From assembly GCF_003334305.1 (NCBI RefSeq), contig NZ_QOWS01000018.1: 64,000 bases of DNA, one strand, 5' to 3'. A program made the position numbers and the translations under genes. Of the stretch, positions 24,894 to 37,810 are shown in pieces; position 1 is the first letter of the stretch; each line of letters opens with the position of its first letter. The DNA comes from Escherichia coli (lineage in GTDB: Bacteria > Pseudomonadota > Gammaproteobacteria > Enterobacterales > Enterobacteriaceae). The notes under the pieces were generated by a model that was not told the DNA's origin, did not search any database, and saw only the letters and a program-made list of their open reading frames with translations.

Positions 24894-25499
24894 TTAGCCG
24901 TTAAGTTTAACTGCCAGACCTGCGACATATTCCCCTTGATAACGAGCAATAGACAGTTCTTCCTGGCTTGGCTGGCGTGAGCCGTCACCGCCTGCGATGG
25001 TTGTTGCGCCGTACGGCGTACCGCCGCGAACCTGTGAAACGTCAAATAATTCCTGCGCTGCGTAGCCAATGGGGACAATTACCATGCCGTGATGCGCAAG
25101 GGTCGTCCAGGTTGAAGTAATAGTTTGTTCCTGACCGCCGCCAGTACCGGTGGAACTAAAGACGCTCGCCAGTTTTCCGTATAGTGCGCCGGAAGCCCAC
25201 AGGCCGCCCGTCTGGTCGAGGAAGGTACGCATTTGACCGGACATGTTGCCAAAGCGGGTAGGTGTACCAAAAATAATGGCGTCGTAATCGGCCAGTTCTT
25301 GCGGGGTTGCAACCGGTGCAGTTTGCGTTTTACCGCCTGCTTTTTCAAATAATTGCGGCGGCATGGTTTCCGGTACACGCTTAACGACAACTTCTGCGCC
25401 ATCCACTTTGCTTGCACCCTCAGCGACTGCGCGTGCCATCGTTTCAATATGTCCGTACATGGAATAATAAAGCACTAGTATTCTTGCCTTAACACTCAT
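24894..25499 (-). CDS. wrbA: NAD(P)H:quinone oxidoreductase WrbA with an element-encoded N-terminus ([12 protein letters not shown] in place of the recalled K-12 MAKVLVLYY)
   Basis: 201-aa flavodoxin-like ORF; the first codons and the RBS (aggaga) lie in the inserted element, the rest is host wrbA. Confidence 0.9.
25469..25475. other. attL core candidate (AAAGCAC), left copy of the junction direct repeat
   Basis: Host wrbA sequence ends and element sequence begins right after this heptamer. Confidence 0.55.
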
Positions 25500-25550
25500 A
25501 TCATTGTTCTCCTGTTCAATGAACCACTTAGATAAGCATAGTCCGAAGAT

Positions 25551-27194
25551 ATGAAGCTGCTAGTGACATACATCAGGTGGAGTACTAAAGAGCAAGACTC
25601 AGGAGACTCCTTAAGACGACAAACAAACCTCATTGATGCTTTCTACTCTAAGCACAAAAACGATTATTACCTTCTTCCTGCTCACAGATACGTTGATAAG
25701 GGTAAATCTGGTTTTCACCAGCAACATAAGAATCAAGGTTCTGACTTCAGACGTATGTTTGAAAATGTTATGTCTGGGGCTATTCCAGAAGGTTCCCTGA
25801 TTGTTGTAGAGAACTTTGACCGCTTCAGTAGGGCTGATATCGACACAGCTATAGATGATGTCAGGCAGATACTGAGGAAGGGAGTCTCTATACTGACTCT
25901 GGGAGATGGTGAACTCTACGACAAGTCAGCATTAACAGACCCTGTGAAGCTGATTAAGCACATCATCATAGCTGAGCGAGCACATCAGGAATCTCTTGTT
26001 AAACAAAAGCGTATAGCTCAGGTCTGGAACCATAAAACACAGCTTGCAAGAGAACTTAAGAAGCCTATGGGTAAGCAAGCCCCCGGATGGTTAGAGCTAT
26101 CAGAAGACGGTTCACACTACATCGTTGATGAAGATAAAGCGTCACTGGTGAATATCATCTATGACAAGCGTCTTTCTGGTATGTCGATGTTTGCTATCTG
26201 CAAATGGCTAAACGAACAAGGTTACCCGACCATTAATCAGCGTAAGGTCAGAATATCCAAGACTAAGAAACCGGATGGTAACTGGTCAGCTTTAAGCGTT
26301 AAACACATCCTGACTTCACGAAGTGTATTAGGTTACCTTCCCGCTAAGATTTCTACAGAAGACCGTAAAACAGTGTTACGTGAAGAAATTGAAGGGTTCT
26401 ATCCTCAGATTGTCACAGATTCTAAGTTTTACGCTGTACAGCAACTGTTAGAGGAAACAGGGAAGGGGAAAACATCCAGCGGTGACCACTGGTTATACGT
26501 GAACATACTGAAGGGGCTTATCCGTTGTAAGTGTGGGCTTGTAATGACTCCTACAGGGATACGTAAACCCGTTTATCAAGGTACTTACCGTTGCAATGGT
26601 AATAAGGAGTCCCGTTGTAGCTACGGTACAGTGTCCAGAAAGTTACTTGATACACAGCTTTGTAGTCGTCTGTTTAGCAAACTGTCACAGCTACACGATG
26701 AAGCTACCGATACAGCTAAATTAGATGAACTACAAAGAAGATTAAACACCGTTGATGGTGAACTGGAAAAACTCACTGAGACGCTGATACAGCTTCCTAA
26801 CATCACTCAGATTCAAGAAGCACTACGGGTTAAACAGGAAGAAAAAGATGAACTGATAGTTCAGTTATCACGAGAAAAGGCGAGGGTAAAATCTGTATCA
26901 AGCTTGGATTTAAGCGGTCTTGATATGGAGTCTGTAGAGGGGAGAACTGAAGCCCAGATTATCATTAAGCGTCTGGTGAAAGAGATTGTTGTTTCTGGTA
27001 ATGAAAAGCTGGTGGATATATATCTTCACAATGGAAATATGATTCGTGGTTTCCCTCTTGATGGTAAAGATGACCACACCTTAACGCTTGAAGAAGCAAC
27101 CGATGAGATGCAGTCACTAGATGATATGCTTATTTTTGGTGAACCAGTAACAAGGATTTATCCTGCTGGTGATATGGAAGAGGTGGACGCTTAG
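25551..27194 (+). CDS. Large serine recombinase (integrase candidate)
   Basis: 547 aa; N-terminal resolvase-type catalytic motif YIRWSTKEQ (catalytic Ser), Cys-rich zinc-ribbon region (CKCG...CNGNKESRC) and coiled-coil segment typical of large serine recombinases; gene abuts the junction. Confidence 0.85.
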
Positions 27195-27979
27195 TATTTT
27201 TTATTAGGGTTCACTGAGTACTTTTTAAGCTTTGAAGCTACTCGACCAGCGTTACTATTAGCATTGGTGACGTTGGTTTTTTCAGCTTCTGTTAAGTCTG
27301 AATAGTCCAGCTTCCAAGCCTTATTACACTTAATCTGAGCATCGAGAATATCATTTCTGATAGCTGGAGCGTAACCGGATACATCGCTAATACTCATTAG
27401 CTCTTTGCACGATAGCATAGGCGCGTTATTGCGTTCAGTGGTCACGTTACCTGCATTCTTCTTACTGGTCACACCACCATCATTCGTAGTCGCGGCTTTT
27501 CCAGTTGCAGCCGAGATATCAGTCTGCCCCACAACAGCTTTGAAGTTAATTTCCTGAAAAGTTAGTTGGATTCTTAATCCGTTTGAAATTCCAACATCTT
27601 TAGAGGCTTTAAAACTTGTGATAATGGAATCATCAATTTTAATTCCGTCTTTACAGATGACAGAAATAATCTGCTTCTGGTCACGCCAGTTTTCCAGAGT
27701 GTCAATGAAGTTCTCTACTAATTGACCCTGACGAGTTAATAGTAAGCTTCCTTCATAACCAACTACAACGACACCACTGATAGTGATTGTTCTGGGTGCT
27801 CTTTGAACATTATCTGTGACGGTTTGCCCTGATTGCATGTTCTGTGTAGTCACCTGCATAGGGCTATCAAATTCCATATTTTCAGTTGCTGATAAGGTTA
27901 AGAAGGCATCTACATTATCTCTTAAGTGGAAGTAAACGCCATCTTTGCCACTGTAGCGGATTTGATTGCTAAAAATCAT
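27191..27979 (-). CDS. Hypothetical protein, possibly distal-tail (Dit)-like phage tail component
   Basis: Follows the tape-measure-like gene in the canonical order; start taken at the second Met (MIFSNQ), which has an AAGGAG RBS; homology not verified. Confidence 0.35.
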
Positions 27980-28059
27980 TAAATTCTCCTTTGATTTCAA
28001 AGGCTTAGTGTATTTTAATCATTTTTAACCAAGCCTTTGATATATAAGTATTTTCTCTG

Positions 28060-28128
28060 TTAAGCGTGAGCTACGTAAATTCTATTTTTCAGTGCGGGTA
28101 TTAACTTTGCTTTATTCACGTAGAACAC
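28060..28128. repeat. Direct repeat copy A (69 bp, internal dyad GCTACGT...ACGTAGC) upstream of the Dit-like gene
   Basis: ttaagcgtgagctacgtaaattctatttttcagtgcgggtattaac... about 88 percent identical to copy B. Confidence 0.75.
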
Positions 28129-28135
28129 CGTTAAA

Positions 28136-30304
28136 TCAATCATCTTCTGGGAATGATGAACTTAATAACGTAGCTTCTGCATATTGGTCGTAGATATTAC
28201 TGCTAAAGGTCATAAAGCTGGTTTCATCTGGTTTAATGGCAACTTCACCACCAAGTGAAACTTTCACAGGCTCCTGAATACGCTTACTTAAAGCAGAGAT
28301 TTCATCCCTCAGACCCTGAATATCTGCACTCGTTAATGCTGAATCTTGCTTAATGTTGTTTAATTCTGGATGATTGAATCTTGCAATATTCATTGTGGCA
28401 TTGTTAAACAATTCACCCATTGAACTAAAAATTCTACTCCATCCTTCGTTAATCACATTCGGTTTATTAGGGTCACCAGAATACACAGGATTAAAGTCAC
28501 TACCCACACCTACCCCAGATGGATGCATATTAGCGTTTTTGACTACTTCCTGATTCATAAAATCCAGTGCTTTCTTCAATGCATATAAACCAAGAGTGAC
28601 ACCTCTGATTTGTGGAATCATTGAAGCTAATGCTAACGCTGTTTCATAACCGTCATCAGCATAACCAATTGCAAGAGCACTACCTACACCACCAGCTACA
28701 CCTTTCAGTTTTCCACCACCTTTACCAGTAGCTACCTGACCAGCCACCTGATTAGCTCTTGTACCTAACGTTGTGATTGCTCTTGTCAGGTTCATAACCC
28801 CTGTAGTAGCACTGAATAGTGTCTTTGCAGATAACGCTATAGCAAGACCTTTGACGAAGTTGATAAATCCATCACCGACTTCATCAAGTAGCTTTCGCTT
28901 AGTGTCATCAAGGCTGTAATAGGTCTTCTTAATCTGTAGAATCCAGCCTTCAAGGTGATTGTTAAAGATACGGATGTCATCTACACCAGCTTTAAGCATG
29001 TCGATAAGTCCACCGATAGCATCACCAGCGATAGAAGAACTCATACCCATTTCACTAAGCAGGTTACTCAGGCTGGATAAGAAGCCATTTAGCTCATCCT
29101 GTGAACCTGAGAAGATTTTCACCATCGTATCATCCCAGTTGTTAGCCAGTTTCCCTAAAGCTGTCTGAGTGCTCTTAGCGACTTCAGCCCAGCCACCCGC
29201 TTTATCAATCATCAAGCCCATCTGTTTAGCGACTTTAGGGAGAGTATCACTACTTAAAATCTTCCCGTCTTTCATCGCTTTATCAAGCTCTGTAGCAGTC
29301 ATACCCAGTGCTTCAGCGAATAGCTTAAATGCACCAGCCATACGGTCACCTAACTGACCACGAAGCTCTTCAGCCTGAATCTTGCCCTTGCTCGCCATCT
29401 GCTCAAATGCTTTCAAAATGCCGTTTAGCTCATCGTTAGAAAGCCCCATTAAGCGACTCATAGCCGTTGCATTACCAAATAGCTCCTGTGTCTGTTCCTG
29501 TGACATAGAACCCTGAGCACCTGCTGCAAACTTAGCGTAGCTTGATAGCCCTTCAGAGATATTAAGACCTGTCTTGTCTGCTAAATTTCGAATAAATACC
29601 TCAGCTTCAGATGCTTTATCACCAAGTACAAACTTAGCGGCTCTCTGTGCGGAATCTCGTTTAAGACCTGCATTCATGATGGCCTTGTAAGCGTTAAGAG
29701 CACCCATCACAGAGTAAAATGCACCAGATAACTTGATTGCATTGCTTGCAAGATTATTAAATGCGTCGCTTGTATTGTTAATGCTGGTGGATGTATGACC
29801 TTTAGCTTTAGCAATTGCTTCTCTGACTGAAGCATTTAACTGAGTCAGCTTCTCATTGAATTTTGAAGAATCCATTGACCCAGCTTTAGCAGATAGCCCG
29901 TAAAACTGAGATTTGATGTATTTCTGCAAAATAGGGTCAAAGCCTTTTAGCTTAGACATATTAGCTGAGTAAGCCGCTGTGATTGCTCTGTTGCCGCTAA
30001 TTCGTGGCTGTCTTGGTTGTCTAAGTGGCTTTAAAGTGTCATCAATTTCCGTTTTAATCTTAAACGCTCTAGTGTTTTTAAGACGCTGCTCAATCTTGGA
30101 AACAGTTTTATCGACATTCTTTTCCATTAGTTTGAGAGAATCATTTAAAGGCGTAGGGTTAACTCTGAATGCCTTATTTAGTCGTTTCTCAATTCTTGAT
30201 GCGATTTGCATCGTTTGTTTCTCGGCTTTTTCCAAGCCTTTTAAAACTTTCTGAGAGCTAAAACTTAGCTCAATCAAAAAATCATCAACTTTAAATTGTG
30301 CCAT
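28136..30304 (-). CDS. Tape-measure-like protein (phage tail length tape measure family candidate)
   Basis: 722 aa; coiled-coil N-terminus, central region resembling the tape-measure core (...AEELRGQLGDRMAGAFKLFAEALGMTATELDKAMKDG...), Gly-rich hydrophobic segments. Confidence 0.55.
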   Translation of the reverse strand: MAQFKVDDFLIELSFSSQKVLKGLEKAEKQTMQIASRIEKRLNKAFRVNPTPLNDSLKLMEKNVDKTVSKIEQRLKNTRAFKIKTEIDDTLKPLRQPRQPRISGNRAITAAYSANMSKLKGFDPILQKYIKSQFYGLSAKAGSMDSSKFNEKLTQLNASVREAIAKAKGHTSTSINNTSDAFNNLASNAIKLSGAFYSVMGALNAYKAIMNAGLKRDSAQRAAKFVLGDKASEAEVFIRNLADKTGLNISEGLSSYAKFAAGAQGSMSQEQTQELFGNATAMSRLMGLSNDELNGILKAFEQMASKGKIQAEELRGQLGDRMAGAFKLFAEALGMTATELDKAMKDGKILSSDTLPKVAKQMGLMIDKAGGWAEVAKSTQTALGKLANNWDDTMVKIFSGSQDELNGFLSSLSNLLSEMGMSSSIAGDAIGGLIDMLKAGVDDIRIFNNHLEGWILQIKKTYYSLDDTKRKLLDEVGDGFINFVKGLAIALSAKTLFSATTGVMNLTRAITTLGTRANQVAGQVATGKGGGKLKGVAGGVGSALAIGYADDGYETALALASMIPQIRGVTLGLYALKKALDFMNQEVVKNANMHPSGVGVGSDFNPVYSGDPNKPNVINEGWSRIFSSMGELFNNATMNIARFNHPELNNIKQDSALTSADIQGLRDEISALSKRIQEPVKVSLGGEVAIKPDETSFMTFSSNIYDQYAEATLLSSSFPEDD

Positions 30305-30322
30305 TGTTCATATTTCACCTCT

Positions 30323-30390
30323 TTAAGCGTGAGCTACGTAAATTCTATTTTTCAGTGTGGGTATTAGCTTTACAGATTTCACGTAGCACA
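30323..30390. repeat. Direct repeat copy B upstream of the tape-measure-like gene
   Basis: ttaagcgtgagctacgtaaattctatttttcagtgtgggtattagc...cacgtagcacac. Confidence 0.75.
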
Positions 30391-30505
30391 CATAGGATTC
30401 GATAGAAGACTATCTCATATACAAAAAAGGAGAGTTACCGATGTCACTCGATAATCTCTCCCGTAGATTTTTACCCAACCAATTCTATTAGAAGCTAATC
30501 TCAAA

Positions 30506-30721
30506 TTAATGGTAAACGTAAGAATACATCCCATCATCACCTAAAATCTGTGCGTCACATGGTAATTTATCTAAGCACCATGAAGGAATCTTACGTACCT
30601 TTGGTTTATGTGAGGTGATAACTTGATGCTGATTTTTAATTCGTAGCTTTGGTTTAGTCTGAAGCTTTAAGTTCTCACAAACAGACTTAATAAGTTCATA
30701 GCGTTCTGTTAAATCAATCAT
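30506..30721 (-). CDS. Hypothetical small basic protein
   Basis: 71-aa ORF co-oriented with neighbouring element genes; no recognisable motif. Confidence 0.4.
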   Translation of the reverse strand: MIDLTERYELIKSVCENLKLQTKPKLRIKNQHQVITSHKPKVRKIPSWCLDKLPCDAQILGDDGMYSYVYH

Positions 30722-30744
30722 TCACCACCTCTTTTAATTCATAG

Positions 30745-31455
30745 TTAAAGTGCCTTGCTATATTTCTGAGAAATCTTCACTAACTGCTCAATATCAGCCT
30801 GCATAGCAATCTTCTTCTGCGTTTCATATGCAGAAATAAGCTCTTTCATAGCCTGAAGCTCTCTTGAGAGATACAACTTAACATTTTCAAGTTGCTTGTT
30901 ACGTGATGCCAAGATGTTCTGTCTGGCAAGTTCAGCGAGTTCTTCATCGCTCTTATTAGTCGTGTAAATAAACTGACCAGCACCCCTTGAAGCTTTAACC
31001 ATCTTCACAATTCGATATCCAGCAGGAAGACTACTAATCACGGCTGCGACGTTTTCTTGAAAAGTACCAAAACCATCATTGTCTTCGTATGTGAAGTAAA
31101 CATACGGCTTCTGTGACAATTCATCCTGAATCTCAAATTCTGACGGCTCAATAGCTGATTGCATCAGGGTAACTTTACTGTAAGCATCATCTAGTTTAAT
31201 ACGCTGTGCTTTTAGCAGTGGGTAATATTCACGCTCAAGCTCAAGTAATGCTTCAGTTTTGCATACATCAGGCATCTCTTGAGGCTCAGGAGACACAAAG
31301 ATGATTTCCTTTGGTGACATTCGGATTTCTTGCTCAAGCTTAATTCTTTCATCGTGTTCTTTACGCTGAATAGCGATAGCTGGATGTTCAGTCTGTGGCG
31401 ACCAGTCACCGAAGCTATCAATCACTTTGCCATTAATGTAAATATCATTTGTCAT
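30745..31455 (-). CDS. Hypothetical protein with C-terminal coiled coil
   Basis: 236-aa ORF with a good RBS (aagagga); no recognisable domain. Confidence 0.5.
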   Translation of the reverse strand: MTNDIYINGKVIDSFGDWSPQTEHPAIAIQRKEHDERIKLEQEIRMSPKEIIFVSPEPQEMPDVCKTEALLELEREYYPLLKAQRIKLDDAYSKVTLMQSAIEPSEFEIQDELSQKPYVYFTYEDNDGFGTFQENVAAVISSLPAGYRIVKMVKASRGAGQFIYTTNKSDEELAELARQNILASRNKQLENVKLYLSRELQAMKELISAYETQKKIAMQADIEQLVKISQKYSKAL

Positions 31456-31933
31456 TGTTTTTTCCTCTTCTAAGCTAAAGTATTTCAGTTTTTAAAAAGC
31501 ACACCTGACAGCCTATCTAAACTTAGAAGAGACTTAAAAGGCGGTTTGCCAAGTATGCTTTTTAAAAGCTGAAAAAGCCCTAGATAACTAAAACGCTATA
31601 AAGGGCTAAGGTGAAGAAATTAAAACATCTAAAGGATTCAATAACGAATGAACAAAGACTTTTCGAGATAGCCTCTCAGGTTGTATAAGAGGCCATGTAG
31701 CGAAAAGCATTGCACCTTTCAGAATGTTCGGTATAGAACATACCTCACCAACTCAGAATATCCATCCATCGGATTATTGAAATAAATAAGAGAGAAATTC
31801 TCTCTATAATTAAAATTATGTCATGCTTAAGGTTATTTGTCAACAGCTTTTTAACAGATTGGTAACATTTATACTTTAATAGATGCACCTGCAATCATAC
31901 CAATCAACACAAAACAGAGAATCACCAATTCCA

Positions 31934-32257
31934 TTAATGCACCACCTTCGAATCCGTAACCAGAATATTATCGCTGTACAAAATTGCTATAGCCGCCTTG
32001 AGATATTTTTCAGGGCTAACGCTGTATTTGTTCGTTTGCTCGACAACCAATCTTTTCATGTTGCTGTCTTTAATTGGTAGCATCATTCGAGGCTCGTTAA
32101 ACTCCACCGACTGAATAAAGTCAGAGATGCTTTCCGCATTATCAGTCATTAACTCTAACAACTTATCAAAGTCAATGCTAACACCTACATCAGTGAAAGC
32201 CTGAATCATCATGGCGGTGTCGGTATCAATAAAAATCTGTAATTCGTAATTGTTCAT
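31934..32257 (-). CDS. Hypothetical acidic protein
   Basis: Start taken at the ATG (MNNYELQIF) preceded by AAGGAG; the track ORF begins at an upstream TTG. Confidence 0.45.
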   Translation of the reverse strand: MNNYELQIFIDTDTAMMIQAFTDVGVSIDFDKLLELMTDNAESISDFIQSVEFNEPRMMLPIKDSNMKRLVVEQTNKYSVSPEKYLKAAIAILYSDNILVTDSKVVH

Positions 32258-32412
32258 TTTTAAAATCTCCTTTTTACCAGACCTCCTCAATCGCTCTGTA
32301 ACGAGCTAAACAGTCTTTTTCAGGGGTAGCCTGTACAGTGGTATTACCCACCCTAAAATAAGATAGTTTTTTGCGTCAGAATGCGATTGAGAGCGTCTGA
32401 GAAGCTGTTTTT

Positions 32413-32700
32413 CTAATTTCTCTTAAAGTCTCGGACTTGCATAAGATTTTTTGGTCTGGTATCGGCTCTGTTACCATTTCGATGGATAATTTGCTTGTTG
32501 GATTGATAGCCATGATAAAGAAACCAGACAACATATTTCACGTAGAAAGTATATCGGCCTATATTAAATGTTTTGTTGCCGTAGTCGTCGGTGTTTATCG
32601 TGACTGACTCTCCATCAGACCAGCACAGGGAATCACTGGATTCATCATAGATAAGGTGTTCTGCAAAATATCTTCTAACATCTTCATTCCAAGGTTTCAT
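32413..32700 (-). CDS. HNH endonuclease-like protein
   Basis: 95 aa; C-terminal IIHRNGNRADTRPKNL resembles the HNH core (I-H-x-N/D-G-N-x-x-D-N-R-x-x-N-L) of phage HNH nucleases. Confidence 0.5.
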   Translation of the reverse strand: MKPWNEDVRRYFAEHLIYDESSDSLCWSDGESVTINTDDYGNKTFNIGRYTFYVKYVVWFLYHGYQSNKQIIHRNGNRADTRPKNLMQVRDFKRN

Positions 32701-32912
32701 AAAACCTCCTCACCCCAATAACCTAATTCAATCTTGTGACGCTCAAACCATTCCGGTTTAACTGCTGTTTTCAGTACTTCATTTGGGCCAATGGCTTTAA
32801 TGAAAATATCTTTTGAGTTATGGATGTCACCGAATCCGTTTCCTTCAATCAGGAGGTCGGAGATGTAGCGAATCATTTTATCCGTGTGGTATTCAAAGGT
32901 AACGCATAGCAT
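32697..32912 (-). CDS. Hypothetical protein
   Basis: 71-aa ORF with start/stop overlap to both neighbours (operon-like coupling). Confidence 0.4.
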   Translation of the reverse strand: MLCVTFEYHTDKMIRYISDLLIEGNGFGDIHNSKDIFIKAIGPNEVLKTAVKPEWFERHKIELGYWGEEVL

Positions 32913-33193
32913 TAAACCTCCAGAGACAGCTTGTGAATCTTAAGACTCAATAGACGGGCAATATCAATTTTAAAGCCGTTAAGTCCCTTCAAAGTATCTA
33001 AAGCGTCCTGAGTAATTCGGATGTGTTTACGACCTTTAGAGACTGGATATTTAAGTAAATCCGACTCAGTAACCTCTTTAGCAATTGCAAGCTGCATAAC
33101 AGTCTGATGAGGTAAGTTAGTAGCTCGTTTAATTCTGGCAAGCTCGTTAAAAGCTTCCTCTGAAATGCGGGTTAAAGTGTGTTTGTTTTTCAT
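32912..33193 (-). CDS. Putative ribbon-helix-helix DNA-binding protein
   Basis: N-terminal HTLTRISEEAFNELARIKRATNL pattern (beta-strand then helix) typical of Arc/MetJ/CopG-type regulators. Confidence 0.4.
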   Translation of the reverse strand: MKNKHTLTRISEEAFNELARIKRATNLPHQTVMQLAIAKEVTESDLLKYPVSKGRKHIRITQDALDTLKGLNGFKIDIARLLSLKIHKLSLEV

Positions 33194-33194
33194 T

Positions 33195-33749
33195 TTAAAA
33201 TTCCTCTGTAACTAAATACGGGTCAAATTCAAAGTCTGGTTCACTGGTTGTAAGGCTGATATTTCCAACTTCCGCATGATGATTAATTGTCTCAATAACT
33301 TTCATGCAAATAGTGGCTAAGTTAGCGCAATATTTATCACTTGGTAATTCGTAGCTAAGTCTGGTTGCTTGTCTTTGAAGATGGCTCGTCACTGTGCTTG
33401 AACTAATCTCATCAAGACTTCGCAGTAAATAAAAAACCTTCCGGTGATAATTATCTCTTCCAAGACTGCGACAAGTACCGATAATTACATCTTCAATTCG
33501 TGGCGGTAATTGCTCGTAAGAATCAAAGCCCATCAAGAAAGTTTTTAAAGTATTCTCTTTTTCTTTGCGTGCTGGCATAAATCTGTCTCGTGGCGTAATG
33601 CTACGAATGACCGCTTCAATGTTCTTACGTTCGGATTTGCTAAAGGTTGGGACTTCGTAGCTGGTGGGGGTGTCTGTGTGGCTGTAACCGTTGTGTCTGT
33701 TGCGTTCTCTTGATGCCTGAAGCATCGCTCTAAATTCTCTGTCGTTCAT
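33195..33749 (-). CDS. Hypothetical protein (first gene of the leftward operon)
   Basis: 184-aa ORF with no recognisable domain. Confidence 0.45.
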   Translation of the reverse strand: MNDREFRAMLQASRERNRHNGYSHTDTPTSYEVPTFSKSERKNIEAVIRSITPRDRFMPARKEKENTLKTFLMGFDSYEQLPPRIEDVIIGTCRSLGRDNYHRKVFYLLRSLDEISSSTVTSHLQRQATRLSYELPSDKYCANLATICMKVIETINHHAEVGNISLTTSEPDFEFDPYLVTEEF

Positions 33750-33850
33750 TCATAAGCTAGTCCTTATAATTGTTAATTCTCTGTTAACTTATATATACAA
33801 TACTAGCATTTTCAAAGACTAATGTCAAGCATTTTTTAACATTTCATTAA

Positions 33851-33866
33851 CATCTGTGGTATAATG
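33851..33866 (+). promoter_or_regulatory. Candidate extended -10 promoter (TGgTATAAT), rightward
   Basis: ctgTGgTATAATgg in the divergent region between the 184-aa gene and the small membrane ORF. Confidence 0.45.
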
Positions 33867-33992
33867 GTTCTATGGGGAGAGTAAAATATAAAGGCGTGGC
33901 TATGAGGTTTATTCGATAGGGGTTGGTACAAGCCCAACCAACCGAATCAACTATGTATGTCACATGGTATTGCATTGCACACAGGAAATTTA

Positions 33993-34169
33993 ATGGTAAA
34001 TCTCCCTCCTGAACTGGGGTCACCTGATGTATGGGCTGGTGGAGGTATCGGGCTGATTGCAGGTCTGTTACTCCGCTACGTCCTTGTCAGAGTGCTTGTT
34101 GTGTTCCGATTGTTCGGTCGTACATGGACGCTTGACCTTAAGGATAATGAGCACACAGAACCCCGTTAA
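33993..34169 (+). CDS. Small single-pass membrane protein (58 aa from the RBS-preceded ATG)
   Basis: Hydrophobic stretch GGGIGLIAGLLLRYVLVRVLVVF; AGGAAA RBS before the MVNLPPEL start. Confidence 0.35.
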   Translation: MVNLPPELGSPDVWAGGGIGLIAGLLLRYVLVRVLVVFRLFGRTWTLDLKDNEHTEPR

Positions 34170-34211
34170 GCTCCCTTCAAATCCCCCTGTACGAGATGGC
34201 ATAGGGGTGTC

Positions 34212-34250
34212 TTTAGCATTTTGTGCTATCTATTAAAAAATAACTTGACA
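34212..34250. promoter_or_regulatory. Operator-like dyad TAGCA-N5-TGCTA followed by ACTTGACA (module 1)
   Basis: tttagcattttgtgcta ... acttgacagaa. Confidence 0.45.
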
Positions 34251-34289
34251 GAACCGGAAAGCTGTATCTATCAGGTATTCACCTCTCTG

Positions 34290-34460
34290 ACAGTAACTTC
34301 TAAAAGTTCTTATTTTTCAATGAGTTGTAATCACCCATATATAGAGAACTGACAAGTCTCTTCACAATTAACTCTGTAACCTTAACAGTGATTTCTAAAA
34401 ATGCTTATTTTTCAATAAGTTGTAATTAGCCATATATAGAGAACTGACAAGTCTCTTCAC
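34290..34460. repeat. Two tandem copies of a 76-bp direct repeat (period 95 bp) in ORF-free DNA
   Basis: acagtaacttctaaaagttcttatttttcaatgagttgtaatcacccatatatagagaactgacaagtctcttcac versus the second copy, about 88 percent identical. Confidence 0.8.
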
Positions 34461-34777
34461 GGAGAACTTCCTGGACTCACTAAGATACAAGGCGATAACC
34501 CCAGAAAGGGAGAGCCACCTTCTAATTGGTATTGTTATGAGGATGCTTCATCCGAATCATCTACCAATCCCTAAACCGACTTCTTAAACAATCTTTACAG
34601 ACCCCGTTCACCAGTCTCAATATTTTTATTTCTCGCTCTTCGTTTGTTGCTCGTTTCTATTATTGAGGGGGTTTGAAAAACCTCTGTAAAATAACCCTTC
34701 CAGTAAAAAGCGAATAACCCCAGAGAGGGGGAATCGCCTCTTTAACATTCTCATAATCAGTGCTCTATATGAGAATT

Positions 34778-35446
34778 TCAGCCCAACCTTTGAACAATCT
34801 TGTAAGTGGTGCTTAGAGGCATTCTTAGCGATTCTGCGATGCTCTTGACGGATTGCCCTTGGCCATGCAGTTTAATCAGCCTGTCAAGCGTCTGTGCATC
34901 GTGTATATGAGGTCTTCCACGTAAACCACCCCTGTTAACCACGGCAAGTAAAAGCATTGTGTCGCCACAATAGATTGTTTGTGTAACTTCAACCTTCGGT
35001 TTACGGGGTGTGTTCCTGTATATCAAAACGCAACTTGCAAACGGTGAACGCACTACAACACCTTTCTTCCCTGCTGGTGGAAGGTATTTGACTGCTCGGT
35101 GTAACGTTCGAATCTCATGCAGAAAGGGGTTTGTATATACACACCGAAGCCAGTAAGTTGTCTTTGACCTGTGCGGAACCAGACATACACACACATCAGC
35201 TTCATGGGATTTTAGGAGGAACCTTTCAGCCATGCTAAACGGCGGGTTAACGAAGACCCGTTCACCAACCCATGATTGATTGTGAATATCATCGGTGAAC
35301 CGTGGCAACAATGCGTCATGCTCAGTTGCAGCACCATCCATCGAAAAACCAAATTCACGGTGTAGGTTACGAAATAAACGATACGGTGTACGCCAGTCAT
35401 CAGAACCACCATGATAACGACCGACATTGATTATTGGATGTGACAC
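34778..35446 (-). CDS. Dam-family (phage-type) DNA N6-adenine methyltransferase with a C-terminal HTH extension; GTG start
   Basis: N-terminal DWRTP and catalytic NPPF motifs of the phage Dam family; C-terminal about 45 aa (GRPHIHDAQTLDRLIKLHGQGQSVKSIAESLRMPLSTTYKIVQRLG) resemble the GRP-linker plus HTH of resolvase/invertase proteins. Confidence 0.7.
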   Translation of the reverse strand: MSHPIINVGRYHGGSDDWRTPYRLFRNLHREFGFSMDGAATEHDALLPRFTDDIHNQSWVGERVFVNPPFSMAERFLLKSHEADVCVCLVPHRSKTTYWLRCVYTNPFLHEIRTLHRAVKYLPPAGKKGVVVRSPFASCVLIYRNTPRKPKVEVTQTIYCGDTMLLLAVVNRGGLRGRPHIHDAQTLDRLIKLHGQGQSVKSIAESLRMPLSTTYKIVQRLG

Positions 35447-35485
35447 AAGCGAAGCGCCCCTCTTAGTATATTTCTTAATCGTCTC

Positions 35486-35546
35486 TTTAGCATTTAGTGC
35501 TTTTTGTTAAGTTTAGCACTTTTTGCTAAAGACAAAACACTTGACA
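35486..35546. promoter_or_regulatory. Operator-like dyads (TTTAGCA-N6-TGCTAAA and a second half-degenerate copy) followed by ACTTGACA (module 2), upstream of the methyltransferase gene
   Basis: tttagcatttagtgct and tttagcactttttgctaaa, then acttgacaaaa. Confidence 0.5.
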
Positions 35547-36020
35547 AAATGGTAAGATTGTTCACATGACCTTACTTAACAGATTCTTAAGAGCTTTGAA
35601 ACGAACTGTTTAACAAGGTCACTACCTCTGGTCTTATCGTTCCCTCTCTTCTTGGTAGTTCTGTTAAGTATCTTTTCAGGTATCTCTTACAGTCACTGTT
35701 AAGATAGAACCTACCTTCGGTTTCATGGTTCTCTTCCTCCCGTTAAATATCCCTTCACAGTCAGACTAAATAACACCTCTGTAGTTTCTTGGTAGAATCT
35801 TTCAAGGTAACTTAACTCTGAGTTTATGAAGTTGACCTTAGTCAATGTTTGTGAAGGTGTTACAGAGCATGTTCTCTAGGTCTGTGTAGCTCACTAAGCG
35901 AGAGAGGGGATATGTGACCATAGGGGAACCCCTCCTGTTAAAAGTTTCTTGATGTTATCATCACAATATGTATAATCACCAACTGTACAGACACCTTAAC
36001 GGTTTCTCTACACCTCACTA

Positions 36021-36089
36021 TGGCTAGGTAGGGTATGGTTTAGCTTGGTACGGCTAGGTTAGGTCTGGTTTGGTTAGGTATGGGTGGAT
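36021..36089. repeat. Degenerate G/T-rich short tandem repeat (GGYTAGGT-like units)
   Basis: tggctaggtagggtatggtttagcttggtacggctaggttaggtctggtttggttaggtatgggtgg. Confidence 0.6.
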
Positions 36090-36120
36090 TGTCGTAGCCA
36101 CGTTAAAAATCGACTTATAG

Positions 36121-36145
36121 GGACTCTTTCGGGAGTCCTTTTTAG
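36121..36145 (+). terminator. Intrinsic terminator, plus orientation, with no upstream plus-strand ORF
   Basis: ggactc-tttcgg-gagtcc stem-loop followed by ttttt. Confidence 0.6.
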
Positions 36146-36347
36146 TTTGTATAAAATCTGTACAGGAGTTATCAGGCTTCTAAAATTTTTATAAAAAATA
36201 ATCAGACCTCTTCTAAGCCTCTTCAACCAAATCTTTCGAAAATATCTGACAGATGTCTGTAGCTGCTAAGTACCCGTCACACCAGCTATGTGACCCCCTT
36301 GGCAAAAAAGCCAAATATCAGCTACATCCATGTAACTATTCAGTAAC

Positions 36348-36899
36348 TTATTTAGCAAGTCTGTAATAAGTTGCTCTAGAGATTCCTAACTCTTCCTGAA
36401 TCTGCAACCTCGTCTTACCTTGTGAAATAAGCGTCTGTACAGCCTCTGAAGAAGCCTTTACAGGCCTCCCCATATGTACCCCTTCAGCTTTAGCACGTTC
36501 AATACCAGCCTTTCTACGCTCTGCTATCAAGCTTCTTTCAAGCTGTGCCAACGTTGACATAATGCCTAACATTGCTTCACCCATAGCGCTTGATAAGTCA
36601 AACCCTTCTCTAAGGCTGATAACTGTCACACCTTTAGCCTGTAGCGCTTTAACCGTTGATAACACATCAATTGTGTCACGTCCAAGACGGTCTACAGCTA
36701 CCACAACTACGGTGTCACCTTCTCGTGCATAAGCTAACAAACTACTGAAACCGTTTCTTAAAGAAGCTTTGACAGAACCACTGACAGCTTCATCAGTGAA
36801 CCATTTAGCAATGTTGTACCCTGCCTCTTCAATTTGCATTTGCTGGTTAGTGATGGATTGGTCATCTGTACTCACCCTGCAATATCCAAGTATCGCCAT
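36348..36899 (-). CDS. Small serine recombinase (resolvase/DNA-invertase family)
   Basis: 183 aa; N-terminal catalytic motif GYCRVSTDDQ, resolvase core, C-terminal GRP linker plus HTH. Confidence 0.85.
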   Translation of the reverse strand: MAILGYCRVSTDDQSITNQQMQIEEAGYNIAKWFTDEAVSGSVKASLRNGFSSLLAYAREGDTVVVVAVDRLGRDTIDVLSTVKALQAKGVTVISLREGFDLSSAMGEAMLGIMSTLAQLERSLIAERRKAGIERAKAEGVHMGRPVKASSEAVQTLISQGKTRLQIQEELGISRATYYRLAK

Positions 36900-36912
36900 A
36901 CATCCCCCTTAG

Positions 36913-37040
36913 AAGTCTCAAAAGTTAGTCTCATAAGTTTAGCTGTCTCATAATCCAAAAACAACCTTTTGAGACTACTTGAGGGTGCATTCTACCGTTA
37001 CGTTGAAAGTGTCTCAAAAGGAAGTCCTTTTAAGACTGGT
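36913..37040. promoter_or_regulatory. Iteron-like array of GTCTCAWAAG motifs (at least four direct, two inverted) immediately upstream of the small recombinase gene
   Basis: gtctcaaaag, gtctcataag, gtctcataat, inverted ttttgagact, gtctcaaaag, taagact within about 125 bp. Confidence 0.6.
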
Positions 37041-37416
37041 TATGAAGGAGCTATGAAGATTTTAGGAGGGTAACTATAACCATCACTTTCTAACTTTCAC
37101 GTAGGAAATCGTTAAGTTTCTTGATAGTTACACCATGTGACCAACTATCTATATATCGTTATATAGCCCTGTATATAACACTTTTCTAGGAGTCGAGAGA
37201 GGGACGACTAACACGATACAGTTTACCCTGAAAAGAGACTTCACAGATTCTCTATATATTTCAATAAGTTAGGCTAAAAAGAGACTATACCGATACTGTA
37301 TAGAATCTGTGTAGAATTGCTTAGATACTTGGAAAAATGCCTTTAAATTGAATAGGTACTAACCTGTTTATGTCCTGTTATTAACAGGTAGTTGAATGTA
37401 CGTGTTTAGCTATGTA

Positions 37417-37438
37417 AAAGCACCAGAACTTTAGCCAT
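37417..37438 (-). other. attR core candidate (AAAGCAC) plus the displaced native wrbA start codon and first five codons
   Basis: Minus strand reads ATG GCT AAA GTT CTG GTG C..., the recalled native wrbA 5' end, now separated from the gene body by the element. Confidence 0.6.
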
Positions 37439-37810
37439 TTCTAACCACTCCTCGTGTTATCTCTATTCCGTAGCGATTCGCTACCACTTATTTAAAGATA
37501 AGACGTCCTTTTCAGAGTGCAAATTTCACAACCACTTATTTGATTTATAACAACTTTCACAAGCACGTAATTTTGTCGCAAAATGACACATTTTTATCTC
37601 ATCGCGTTTTTTTAATCATAAGAGCGGCTTATGGATAATTATTGGAGATGATATCTATTCTCGCTAAGAAGCTGTTGCAGGATATTACCAAACGCGGGTC
37701 TGCCCGCGTCAGTTCACTAAGCTTAGTCCCACGTAGCGAAAATATGGCAGCCGCCATACGCCGCGTTAATTCTATGCAATATGATGTCTATACCCAGACG
37801 GAGGTCAGTA

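Follow-up and report, generated by a model that had tools for sequence, protein, structure and literature searches.

MarA, SoxS, and Rob are host stress activators of the AraC family; they are monomeric proteins with a pair of helix-turn-helix (HTH) motifs, and their binding site, the marbox, is asymmetric and 19-20 bp long. In phage satellites, sensing of the helper through shared promoter elements is established for the pair P2/P4. A marbox consensus derived from chromatin immunoprecipitation (ChIP) reads 5'-GCAnnWWnTGnnAAA-3' (PMC12052159), and an older one reads AYnGCACnnWnnRYYAAAY (PMC3709825). According to published rules, class I boxes are in reverse orientation and are located between -56 and -85, while class II boxes are in forward orientation and are located between -36 and -55, overlapping the -35 element (PMC12052159). 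Box positions of ca. -71.5 for acrA and ca. -41 for micF have been published (PMC8811837). We analyzed a 64 kb stretch of Escherichia coli DNA (from contig NZ_QOWS01000018.1, assembly GCF_003334305.1), which is referred to as the window. It carries an island which has the appearance of a satellite, undescribed so far, of lytic Felix-O1-type phages. Three copies of the dyad TAGCA-N5-TGCTA in this island adjoin two predicted promoters. We consider, with a little less than even confidence, that they are marbox-type activator sites for MarA, SoxS, or Rob, of class I and class II, on two plus-strand promoters which would transcribe noncoding DNA that mimics a helper phage.

The three sites were named A, B, and C by position (Table 1), and L numbers designate related loci. 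An earlier note on this DNA had described a triplicated dyad, each copy being followed by ACTTGACA. All three dyads proved to be real; one of them (B) has a mismatch, and the copies are better described as two modules than as three units. ACTTGACA is present just twice, after A and after C (34243-34250, 14 nt past A; 35539-35546, 10 nt past C and 36 nt past B), so that this part of the description had to be given up. The motif frequency, which the note had named as a check, is far above background in the window. Sites A, B, and C are the sole matches to TAGCA-N5-TGCTA with up to one mismatch found by a pattern search of the window. Two perfect dyads were observed against 0.10 expected, a number that was reached in 1 of 100 shuffles of the 64 kb. 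In ca. 115 kb of related loci, the pattern search found no dyad copies beyond homologous positions.

Sites A and B share 25 of 30 flanking nucleotides (repeat analysis), and C is the inverted copy among the three dyads (inverted-repeat analysis); the three sites are thus not independent. The region around A aligns with the B/C region once a 26-nt stretch bearing C is taken out. The real unit reads as an upstream module in which TTGACA is combined with one or two sites; it exists in two paralogous copies, not three. Sites B and C together form a 50-bp palindrome and are 26 bp apart, the dyads being 15-21 bp long. One strand of every copy from the window, L010, and L011 reads (A/T)(A/T)(A/G)GCAC-N4-TG(C/T)TAAA.

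A comparison with the diverged locus L011 shows which positions are retained: the half-sites are identical to those of the window at 18 of 20 positions, the spacers at 8 of 21 (Fisher p = 6e-4), and the distances to the -10 elements are unchanged. Site C is kept in L010 and also in L011, where it has the different spacer CGAAT. Because the dyads are far above background, have fixed positions, and retain their half-sites, though not their spacers, in a diverged relative, they are very probably protein-binding regulatory sites adjoining promoters.

Table 1. Sites, predicted promoters, genes, and other features of the island (positions are those of the window)
Feature	Position	Strand	Description
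Site A	dyad 34214-34228; element 34211-34229	dyad +; element -	dyad TAGCATTTTGTGCTA; minus strand reads ATAGCACAAAATGCTAAAG; TAGCA-N5-TGCTA with 0 mismatches
Site B	dyad 35488-35502; element 35485-35503	element -	dyad TAGCATTTAGTGCTT; minus strand reads AAAGCACTAAATGCTAAAG; 1 mismatch (TGCTT)
Site C	dyad 35514-35528; element 35513-35531	element +	dyad TAGCACTTTTTGCTA; plus strand reads TTAGCACTTTTTGCTAAAG; 0 mismatches
Promoter P_A (putative)	34245-34274	+	-35 TTGACA 34245-34250, 18-nt spacer, weak -10 TATCAG 34269-34274
Promoter P2 (predicted)	35529-35558	+	weak -35 AAGACA 35529-35534, 18-nt spacer, extended -10 TGgTAAGAT 35550-35558
P2 transcription unit (predicted, noncoding)	35565-36148	+	ca. 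580 nt; CTTAACAG-type helper-like motifs, internal promoter-like site 35949-35976, iteron-like repeats 36019-36117
Intrinsic terminator closing the P2 unit	36119-36140 plus T run		stem kept in L003 despite a loop insertion
Terminator-like hairpin cccctgtac...gcatagggg	34184-34207	+	ends the small membrane-protein open reading frame 33993-34169 (+); directly 5' of site A
p93	32912-33193	-	tandem ribbon-helix-helix protein, 93 aa; AlphaFold pLDDT 92; beta-alpha-alpha repeated twice in a single chain
Dam-HTH gene (dam)	34778-35446	-	GTG start 35446; 222 aa; phage-type N6-adenine methyltransferase with C-terminal resolvase-type HTH
51-bp terminal-repeat copy	34523-34573	+	downstream of P_A; 100% identical to phage NBEco004 311-361 and 85199-85249
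Host island	25500-37389		ca. 11.9 kb, between wrbA and ymdF; right end set by homology break

The promoters P_A and P2 (the latter not to be confused with phage P2) both point rightward, away from the gene dam that lies between the two modules, and into noncoding DNA. An A-tract (34235-34240) is located just 5' of P_A. In 13 relatives the TTGACA of P_A is invariant, and its -10 element is TATCAA in most of them. From these hexamers, transcription is predicted to start near 34281. The start of P2 is likewise predicted from hexamers, near 35565. Its extended -10 element, TGnTAnnAT, is kept in 13/13 relatives, and a promoter scan of L005 returned AAGACA-18-TATGAT together with the TG of the extended element, which corresponds to P2. 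The sequence TTGACAAA (35541-35548) is conserved in every relative and lies inside the P2 spacer, 5-6 nt from the extended -10. The TTGACA found there was rejected as -35 element of P2: it is separated from the -10 by only 5-6 nt, and no relative has a usable -10 at a distance of 16-18 nt downstream.

The ChIP-derived marbox consensus is matched perfectly at A (minus strand), at B (minus strand, 35486-35500), and at C on both strands (35516-35530, plus; 35512-35526, minus). Perfect matches number five in the window against 1.5 expected, and four of the five are on sites A-C. In the related loci (115 kb), perfect marbox 15-mers occur at homologous positions only, and the orthologues in L010 and L011 are perfect. 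Of the specified positions of the older consensus, 13/14 are matched by A and 12/14 by both B and C; by a hand count, the L010 orthologue of B matches at 14/14. Site A is one of just two hits to the older consensus with up to one mismatch in the window. Invariance across the copies (GCAC, G, T, AAA) falls on specified positions of the marbox, and variation falls mostly on its n and W positions. The palindromic look of the sites would be explained by the GCA and TGC that a marbox has at a distance of one helical turn. Among the 13 relatives that have site A, 10 have it in perfect form and three have a single change. A MarA-like protein is encoded neither by the island nor by the Felixounavirus NBEco004, so that a binder would have to come from the host.

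The predicted arrangement relative to the promoters is also that of known marboxes. With respect to the predicted, unmapped starts, the sites are centred at -62 (A, reverse), -72 (B, reverse), and -42 (C, forward), and the 3' AAA of C overlaps the -35-like AAGACA of P2. The -10 elements had been chosen before the marbox idea arose; the geometric fit was thus not tuned to the marbox. The closest counterpart is the marRAB promoter, which, as read from a genome (L021), has the sequence TTTAGCA-AAAC-GTGGCAT, 16 nt, TTGACT, 17 nt, TATTAT; site A and P_A read TTTAGCA-TTTT-GTGCTAT, 15 nt, TTGACA, 18 nt, TATCAG. Both have a reverse box and share the order TTTAGCA-N4-GTGnnAT, 15-16 nt, TTGAC(A/T), 17-18 nt, and a -10 element. 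In both, 39 nt separate the box from the -10, and the box is predicted to be centred at -62. The two differ in that site A, itself a predicted site, is closer to the ChIP-derived consensus (0 vs 1 mismatch), and in that P_A has no downstream MarR operators, has a weak -10, and would produce a transcript of noncoding DNA from a mobile island. Site C, placed in forward orientation over a weak -35 at ca. -42, resembles the boxes of the class II promoters micF (ca. -41), lpxC P2, and lpxL P1, and site B, in reverse orientation at ca. -72, resembles that of the class I promoter acrAB (acrA, ca. -71.5). Unlike these promoters, the P2 promoter of the island is served by two boxes 26 bp apart, of which C matches in both orientations, relies on an extended -10, and has the conserved TTGACAAA in its spacer.

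The defects of the two promoters would fit a dependence on an activator, as P_A has a poor -10 and P2 has a poor -35 that is overlapped by a box. In the proposed mechanism, site A would activate P_A, whose -35 is good and whose -10 is poor, in the manner of a class I box. Site B would likewise act on P2 as a class I box, and site C, overlapping the weak -35 of this extended -10 promoter, would act as a class II box. Both promoters would then transcribe noncoding DNA which imitates the terminal repeat and the intergenic repeat region of a helper phage.

Several points weigh against the assignment to MarA, SoxS, and Rob. The motif is degenerate: the older consensus has 17 hits with up to two mismatches in the window where 19 are expected, and a published scan of the E. 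coli genome lists 17,730 candidates (PMC12052159). Once the core TAGCA-N5-TGCTA is given, the WW of the spacer and the AA of the flank are estimated to be met by chance in ca. 5% of cases. The match was found after many consensus sequences had been considered, which is a look-elsewhere effect, and the consensus of Lrp fits at 13/15 positions, too. As the sites are paralogous, their shared asymmetry may have been inherited rather than selected. Conservation at A is not specific to the site, the entire block of 160 bp around it being conserved, and two natural variants affect specified positions (the G in L018 and, in L003 and L020, a Y of the older consensus). Since many relatives are devoid of A or of B/C, the input would be dispensable. 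Finally, both start sites are predicted from hexamers, the -10 of P_A is weak, and binding and activation by MarA, SoxS, or Rob are predictions as well.

The strongest of the other explanations takes the symmetry of the dyads at face value. The sites would be operators at which a dimeric regulator from the island itself, most likely p93, switches P_A and P2; TAGCA and TGCTA, one helical turn apart, would be read by two copies of it, and B and C, 26 bp apart, would be bound cooperatively. Searches with p93 against Pfam and against PDB sequences gave no match, and only the fold search was informative. Its double ribbon-helix-helix is modelled with confidence, and the best fold matches are DndE, AvtR, and chains of the F-plasmid relaxosome. 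These chains are unnamed in the fold-search output; we take them to be TraY. p93 is the only DNA-binding protein that is encoded in every relative whose fetched region covers its gene, and its strand residues are invariant in 10 relatives. The 10-bp spacing of the boxes would suit dimers of ribbon-helix-helix or HTH proteins, the 50-bp palindrome of B and C and the conservation of half-sites but not of spacers speak for such operators, and mobile elements usually have operators of their own. The operators of Arc, Mnt, CopG, and TraY are comparable in having short inverted boxes about one turn apart, paired sites next to a promoter, and a ribbon-helix-helix gene nearby. They differ in that the island sites are asymmetric and that none is present at the promoter of p93 itself, whose binding is hypothetical. 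Nothing links this protein to the motif: the dyad is absent from the promoter of its own operon (33800-33870), and L009 has p93 and none of the sites. Neither the conserved asymmetry nor the orientation according to the marbox rules is predicted by a symmetric binder, and natural variants break the palindrome at positions where the marbox is free (e.g., TGCCA in L010). We consider operators of this kind doubtful.

It is improbable that the sites have no protein-binding role and are duplicated AT-rich leftovers, or DNA or RNA hairpins, which are conserved through close kinship. Such an origin would be compatible with A being no better conserved than the surrounding 160 bp, with the predicted folding of B/C into a single hairpin (-10.5 kcal/mol, z = -4.1), and with the many relatives that manage without A or B/C. 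Site A by itself has a predicted stem of only 5 bp (-3 kcal/mol), however, and the spacers show no covariation that would preserve a hairpin. The retention of half-sites and of the distance to the -10 in L011, while the spacers diverge, argues against mere kinship, as does the absence of the motif from everywhere else in the ca. 180 kb examined.

A somewhat slimmer chance is given to a different host factor or to a factor from the helper. Arrays of Lrp sites are typically phased at ca. 30 bp. The Lrp consensus is yAGhAwATTwTdCTr, a 15-bp palindrome (PMC5554404), i.e. of the same shape as the dyads, and sites A and C match it at 13/15 positions. Matches at this level are common (22 in the window vs 12 expected), and the spacing of B and C at 26 bp is unlike the phasing of Lrp. 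A regulator of the helper could act as Ogr of phage P2 does on the late promoters of P4, since satellites commonly sense their helpers via shared promoter elements. In NBEco004, the one candidate helper genome compared, a perfect dyad is absent, hits with one mismatch are patternless and not enriched, and the early promoters are ordinary sigma-70 types in which the motif is absent. The systems P4 (Psid and PLL) with Ogr of phage P2, and PLE of Vibrio cholerae with ICP1, resemble the island in two respects. The island is satellite-like in that it lacks capsid and terminase genes and possesses a large serine recombinase, tail genes derived from a helper, and helper-like noncoding DNA, and it has a dyad upstream of promoters at ca. 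-55 to -62. It differs from them in that the genome of the presumed helper does not have the motif, so that helper and satellite have no promoter element in common, and in that induction and packaging of the island are hypothetical.

The earlier note had regarded the dyads as autoregulatory operators that flank the gene for Dam-HTH (PF05869, 3.9e-13; HTH_7 PF02796, 6.4e-4) and may be looped across it, and had listed the invertase among the possible binders. The flanking position is geometrically right: B and C are 42-82 nt upstream of the GTG of dam, and A is ca. 550 nt past its stop (34778). The protein does have an HTH of the resolvase type, and the minus strand of the left half of C reads TGCTAAACT, by eye a possible extended -10 directed toward dam. 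A promoter scan found no sigma-70-like match on the minus strand upstream of the gene. The distribution among relatives separates the sites from dam. The window has A, B/C, and dam. Site A occurs without B/C and without dam in L002, L003, and L015-L020, and together with dam but without B/C in L005-L008. L009 has dam and none of the sites, and L010 and L011 have B/C and lack both A and dam. Dam-HTH from L005-L007 and L009 shows 92-97% identity to the protein of the window, including the HTH. Of 5426 complete E. coli genomes, 403 have the A block, 214 have dam, and 53 have the B/C block; the carriers of the latter include the well-studied ETEC strain E24377A. With respect to DNA sequence, dam occurs in two allele classes (at least 90% identity, 93 genomes; ca. 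70% identity, 118 genomes).

In relatives devoid of dam, the two noncoding stretches are contiguous and have kept a remnant of the ribosome-binding site and start of dam (gtgaccccaagcgaagcgcccctct; L002 5905-5935). The gene reads as an accessory insertion between the two modules. The 1.3-kb gap between these exists because dam was inserted between otherwise contiguous noncoding stretches, and it thus does not call for looping. The invertase is not needed as a binder, as site A persists in L002 and L017, which do not have the small serine recombinase. Dam-HTH relatives were not found in viral contigs. Since sites and dam occur independently of each other and the promoters face away from the gene, autoregulation with looping is not supported, and operators that form a loop between clusters 1.3 kb apart and belong to Dam-HTH, or to the serine recombinase next to it, whose HTH is similar, are very improbable.

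Crossover sites for a serine invertase (hix/gix type, an inverted pair of ca. 26 bp) were also considered and rejected. The dam segment has a single orientation in 6/6 dam-bearing loci, the sites persist in loci that lack the recombinase or have another gene in its place (L002, L017, L010, L018), and the dyads are only 15-21 bp long. The opposite-strand recombinase of some relatives is a different gene and not an inverted copy, so that it gives no sign of inversion by the small recombinase. Readings as sigma-54, sigma-32, T4 MotA-box, or IHF sites were dropped by eye because the spacing is wrong or key bases are missing.

Additional features were noted in the surroundings of the promoters. The hairpin directly 5' of site A is wholly inverted in L002, L015, and L017 and has a 17-nt loop insertion in L016, its stem always being kept. 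Downstream of P_A there are two direct repeats (34290-34365 and 34385-34460; 76 nt each, 91% identical, 95 nt apart), the first of which is almost invariant among relatives while the second is variable. A 15-codon open reading frame beginning at the predicted P2 start was discarded, as its start codon is missing in four relatives. The region 33800-33865 has two strong back-to-back promoters, TTGACA-17-TAGTAT with TG leftward and TTAACA-18-TATAAT with TG rightward; the spacer of the rightward one contains a second TTAACAT 11 nt past the first, and the same motif fills the end of the phage genome. A search of 33000-37500 against Rfam gave zero matches.

The window is 100% identical to the chromosome of E. 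coli strain A7. The island (Table 1) codes for a large serine recombinase, a tape-measure protein, a baseplate-type protein, the small open reading frames of a leftward operon, Dam-HTH, and a small serine recombinase; a capsid or terminase gene was not found in it. The tape-measure protein shows 38-43% identity to its counterpart from NBEco004, and the baseplate-type protein (269 aa) is 72.5% identical to the product of the gene that follows the tape-measure gene in this phage. The similarity extends to noncoding DNA. The NBEco004 record has an identical 628-bp copy at each end, and each contains the match to the 51-bp terminal-repeat copy downstream of P_A, which could represent a copied packaging signal. 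This copy is a hairpin within a hairpin, of which the outer stem alone is kept in L003 and L009. Motifs of the CTTAACAG type crowd the phage end and recur downstream of the second module, and 36056-36117 resembles repeats from the intergenic region after the Felixounavirus DNA ligase gene. The region 36019-36117 consists of short tandem repeats of the GGTTAGG/GGCTAGG type with ca. 76% identity to these post-ligase repeats, which are annotated as a repeat_region in phage garuso. Together with the promoter-like site upstream and the strong terminator downstream, the repeats of the P2 unit form an arrangement that looks like an origin.

Related islands occur at other chromosomal sites with other recombinases, and also in E. 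albertii; of 5426 E. coli genomes, about 400-440 have blocks of the island family, and several chromosomal sites are occupied. A scan of species-representative genomes with an alignment of p184, a protein of 184 aa, returned two E. albertii loci only, so footprinting across genera was impossible. No match to p184 was found in Pfam, among PDB sequences, or by fold, and its model is only partly confident. The module of the small serine recombinase (36320-37090) is swapped for an unrelated opposite-strand recombinase or for an AP2-domain gene among L010, L018, L002, and L017, the flanks being conserved. At its other side, the island borders on the 5' end of wrbA (24894-25551), for which an open reading frame of 201 aa is found in the window; the island may supply the first wrbA codons and the promoter.

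As regulatory sites, the dyads are ordinary; the island around them is more unusual. In the literature searched, no description of a Felix-O1-type satellite was found. With its own tape-measure and baseplate-type proteins, the 51-bp copy of a terminal repeat, and the repeats resembling an intergenic region, the island is perhaps more interesting than the dyads. A more far-reaching and rather unlikely possibility is that it belongs to a new family of satellites of lytic Felix-O1-type phages, which occurs in E. albertii and in ca. 8% of the complete genomes of E. coli. The helper-mimicking noncoding regions of this family would be under promoters wired to MarA, SoxS, and Rob, and stress by bile, oxidants, or antibiotics would prime replication or packaging before or during infection by the helper.

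The case shows how a marbox may be mistaken for a symmetric operator, and that a comparison of relatives can separate a site from its neighbouring gene. If the sites are true marboxes, the host regulon for stress and antibiotic resistance would be tied to an island with parts copied from a strictly lytic phage family that is used in phage therapy and biocontrol, and what switches on the satellites of lytic phages would become testable.

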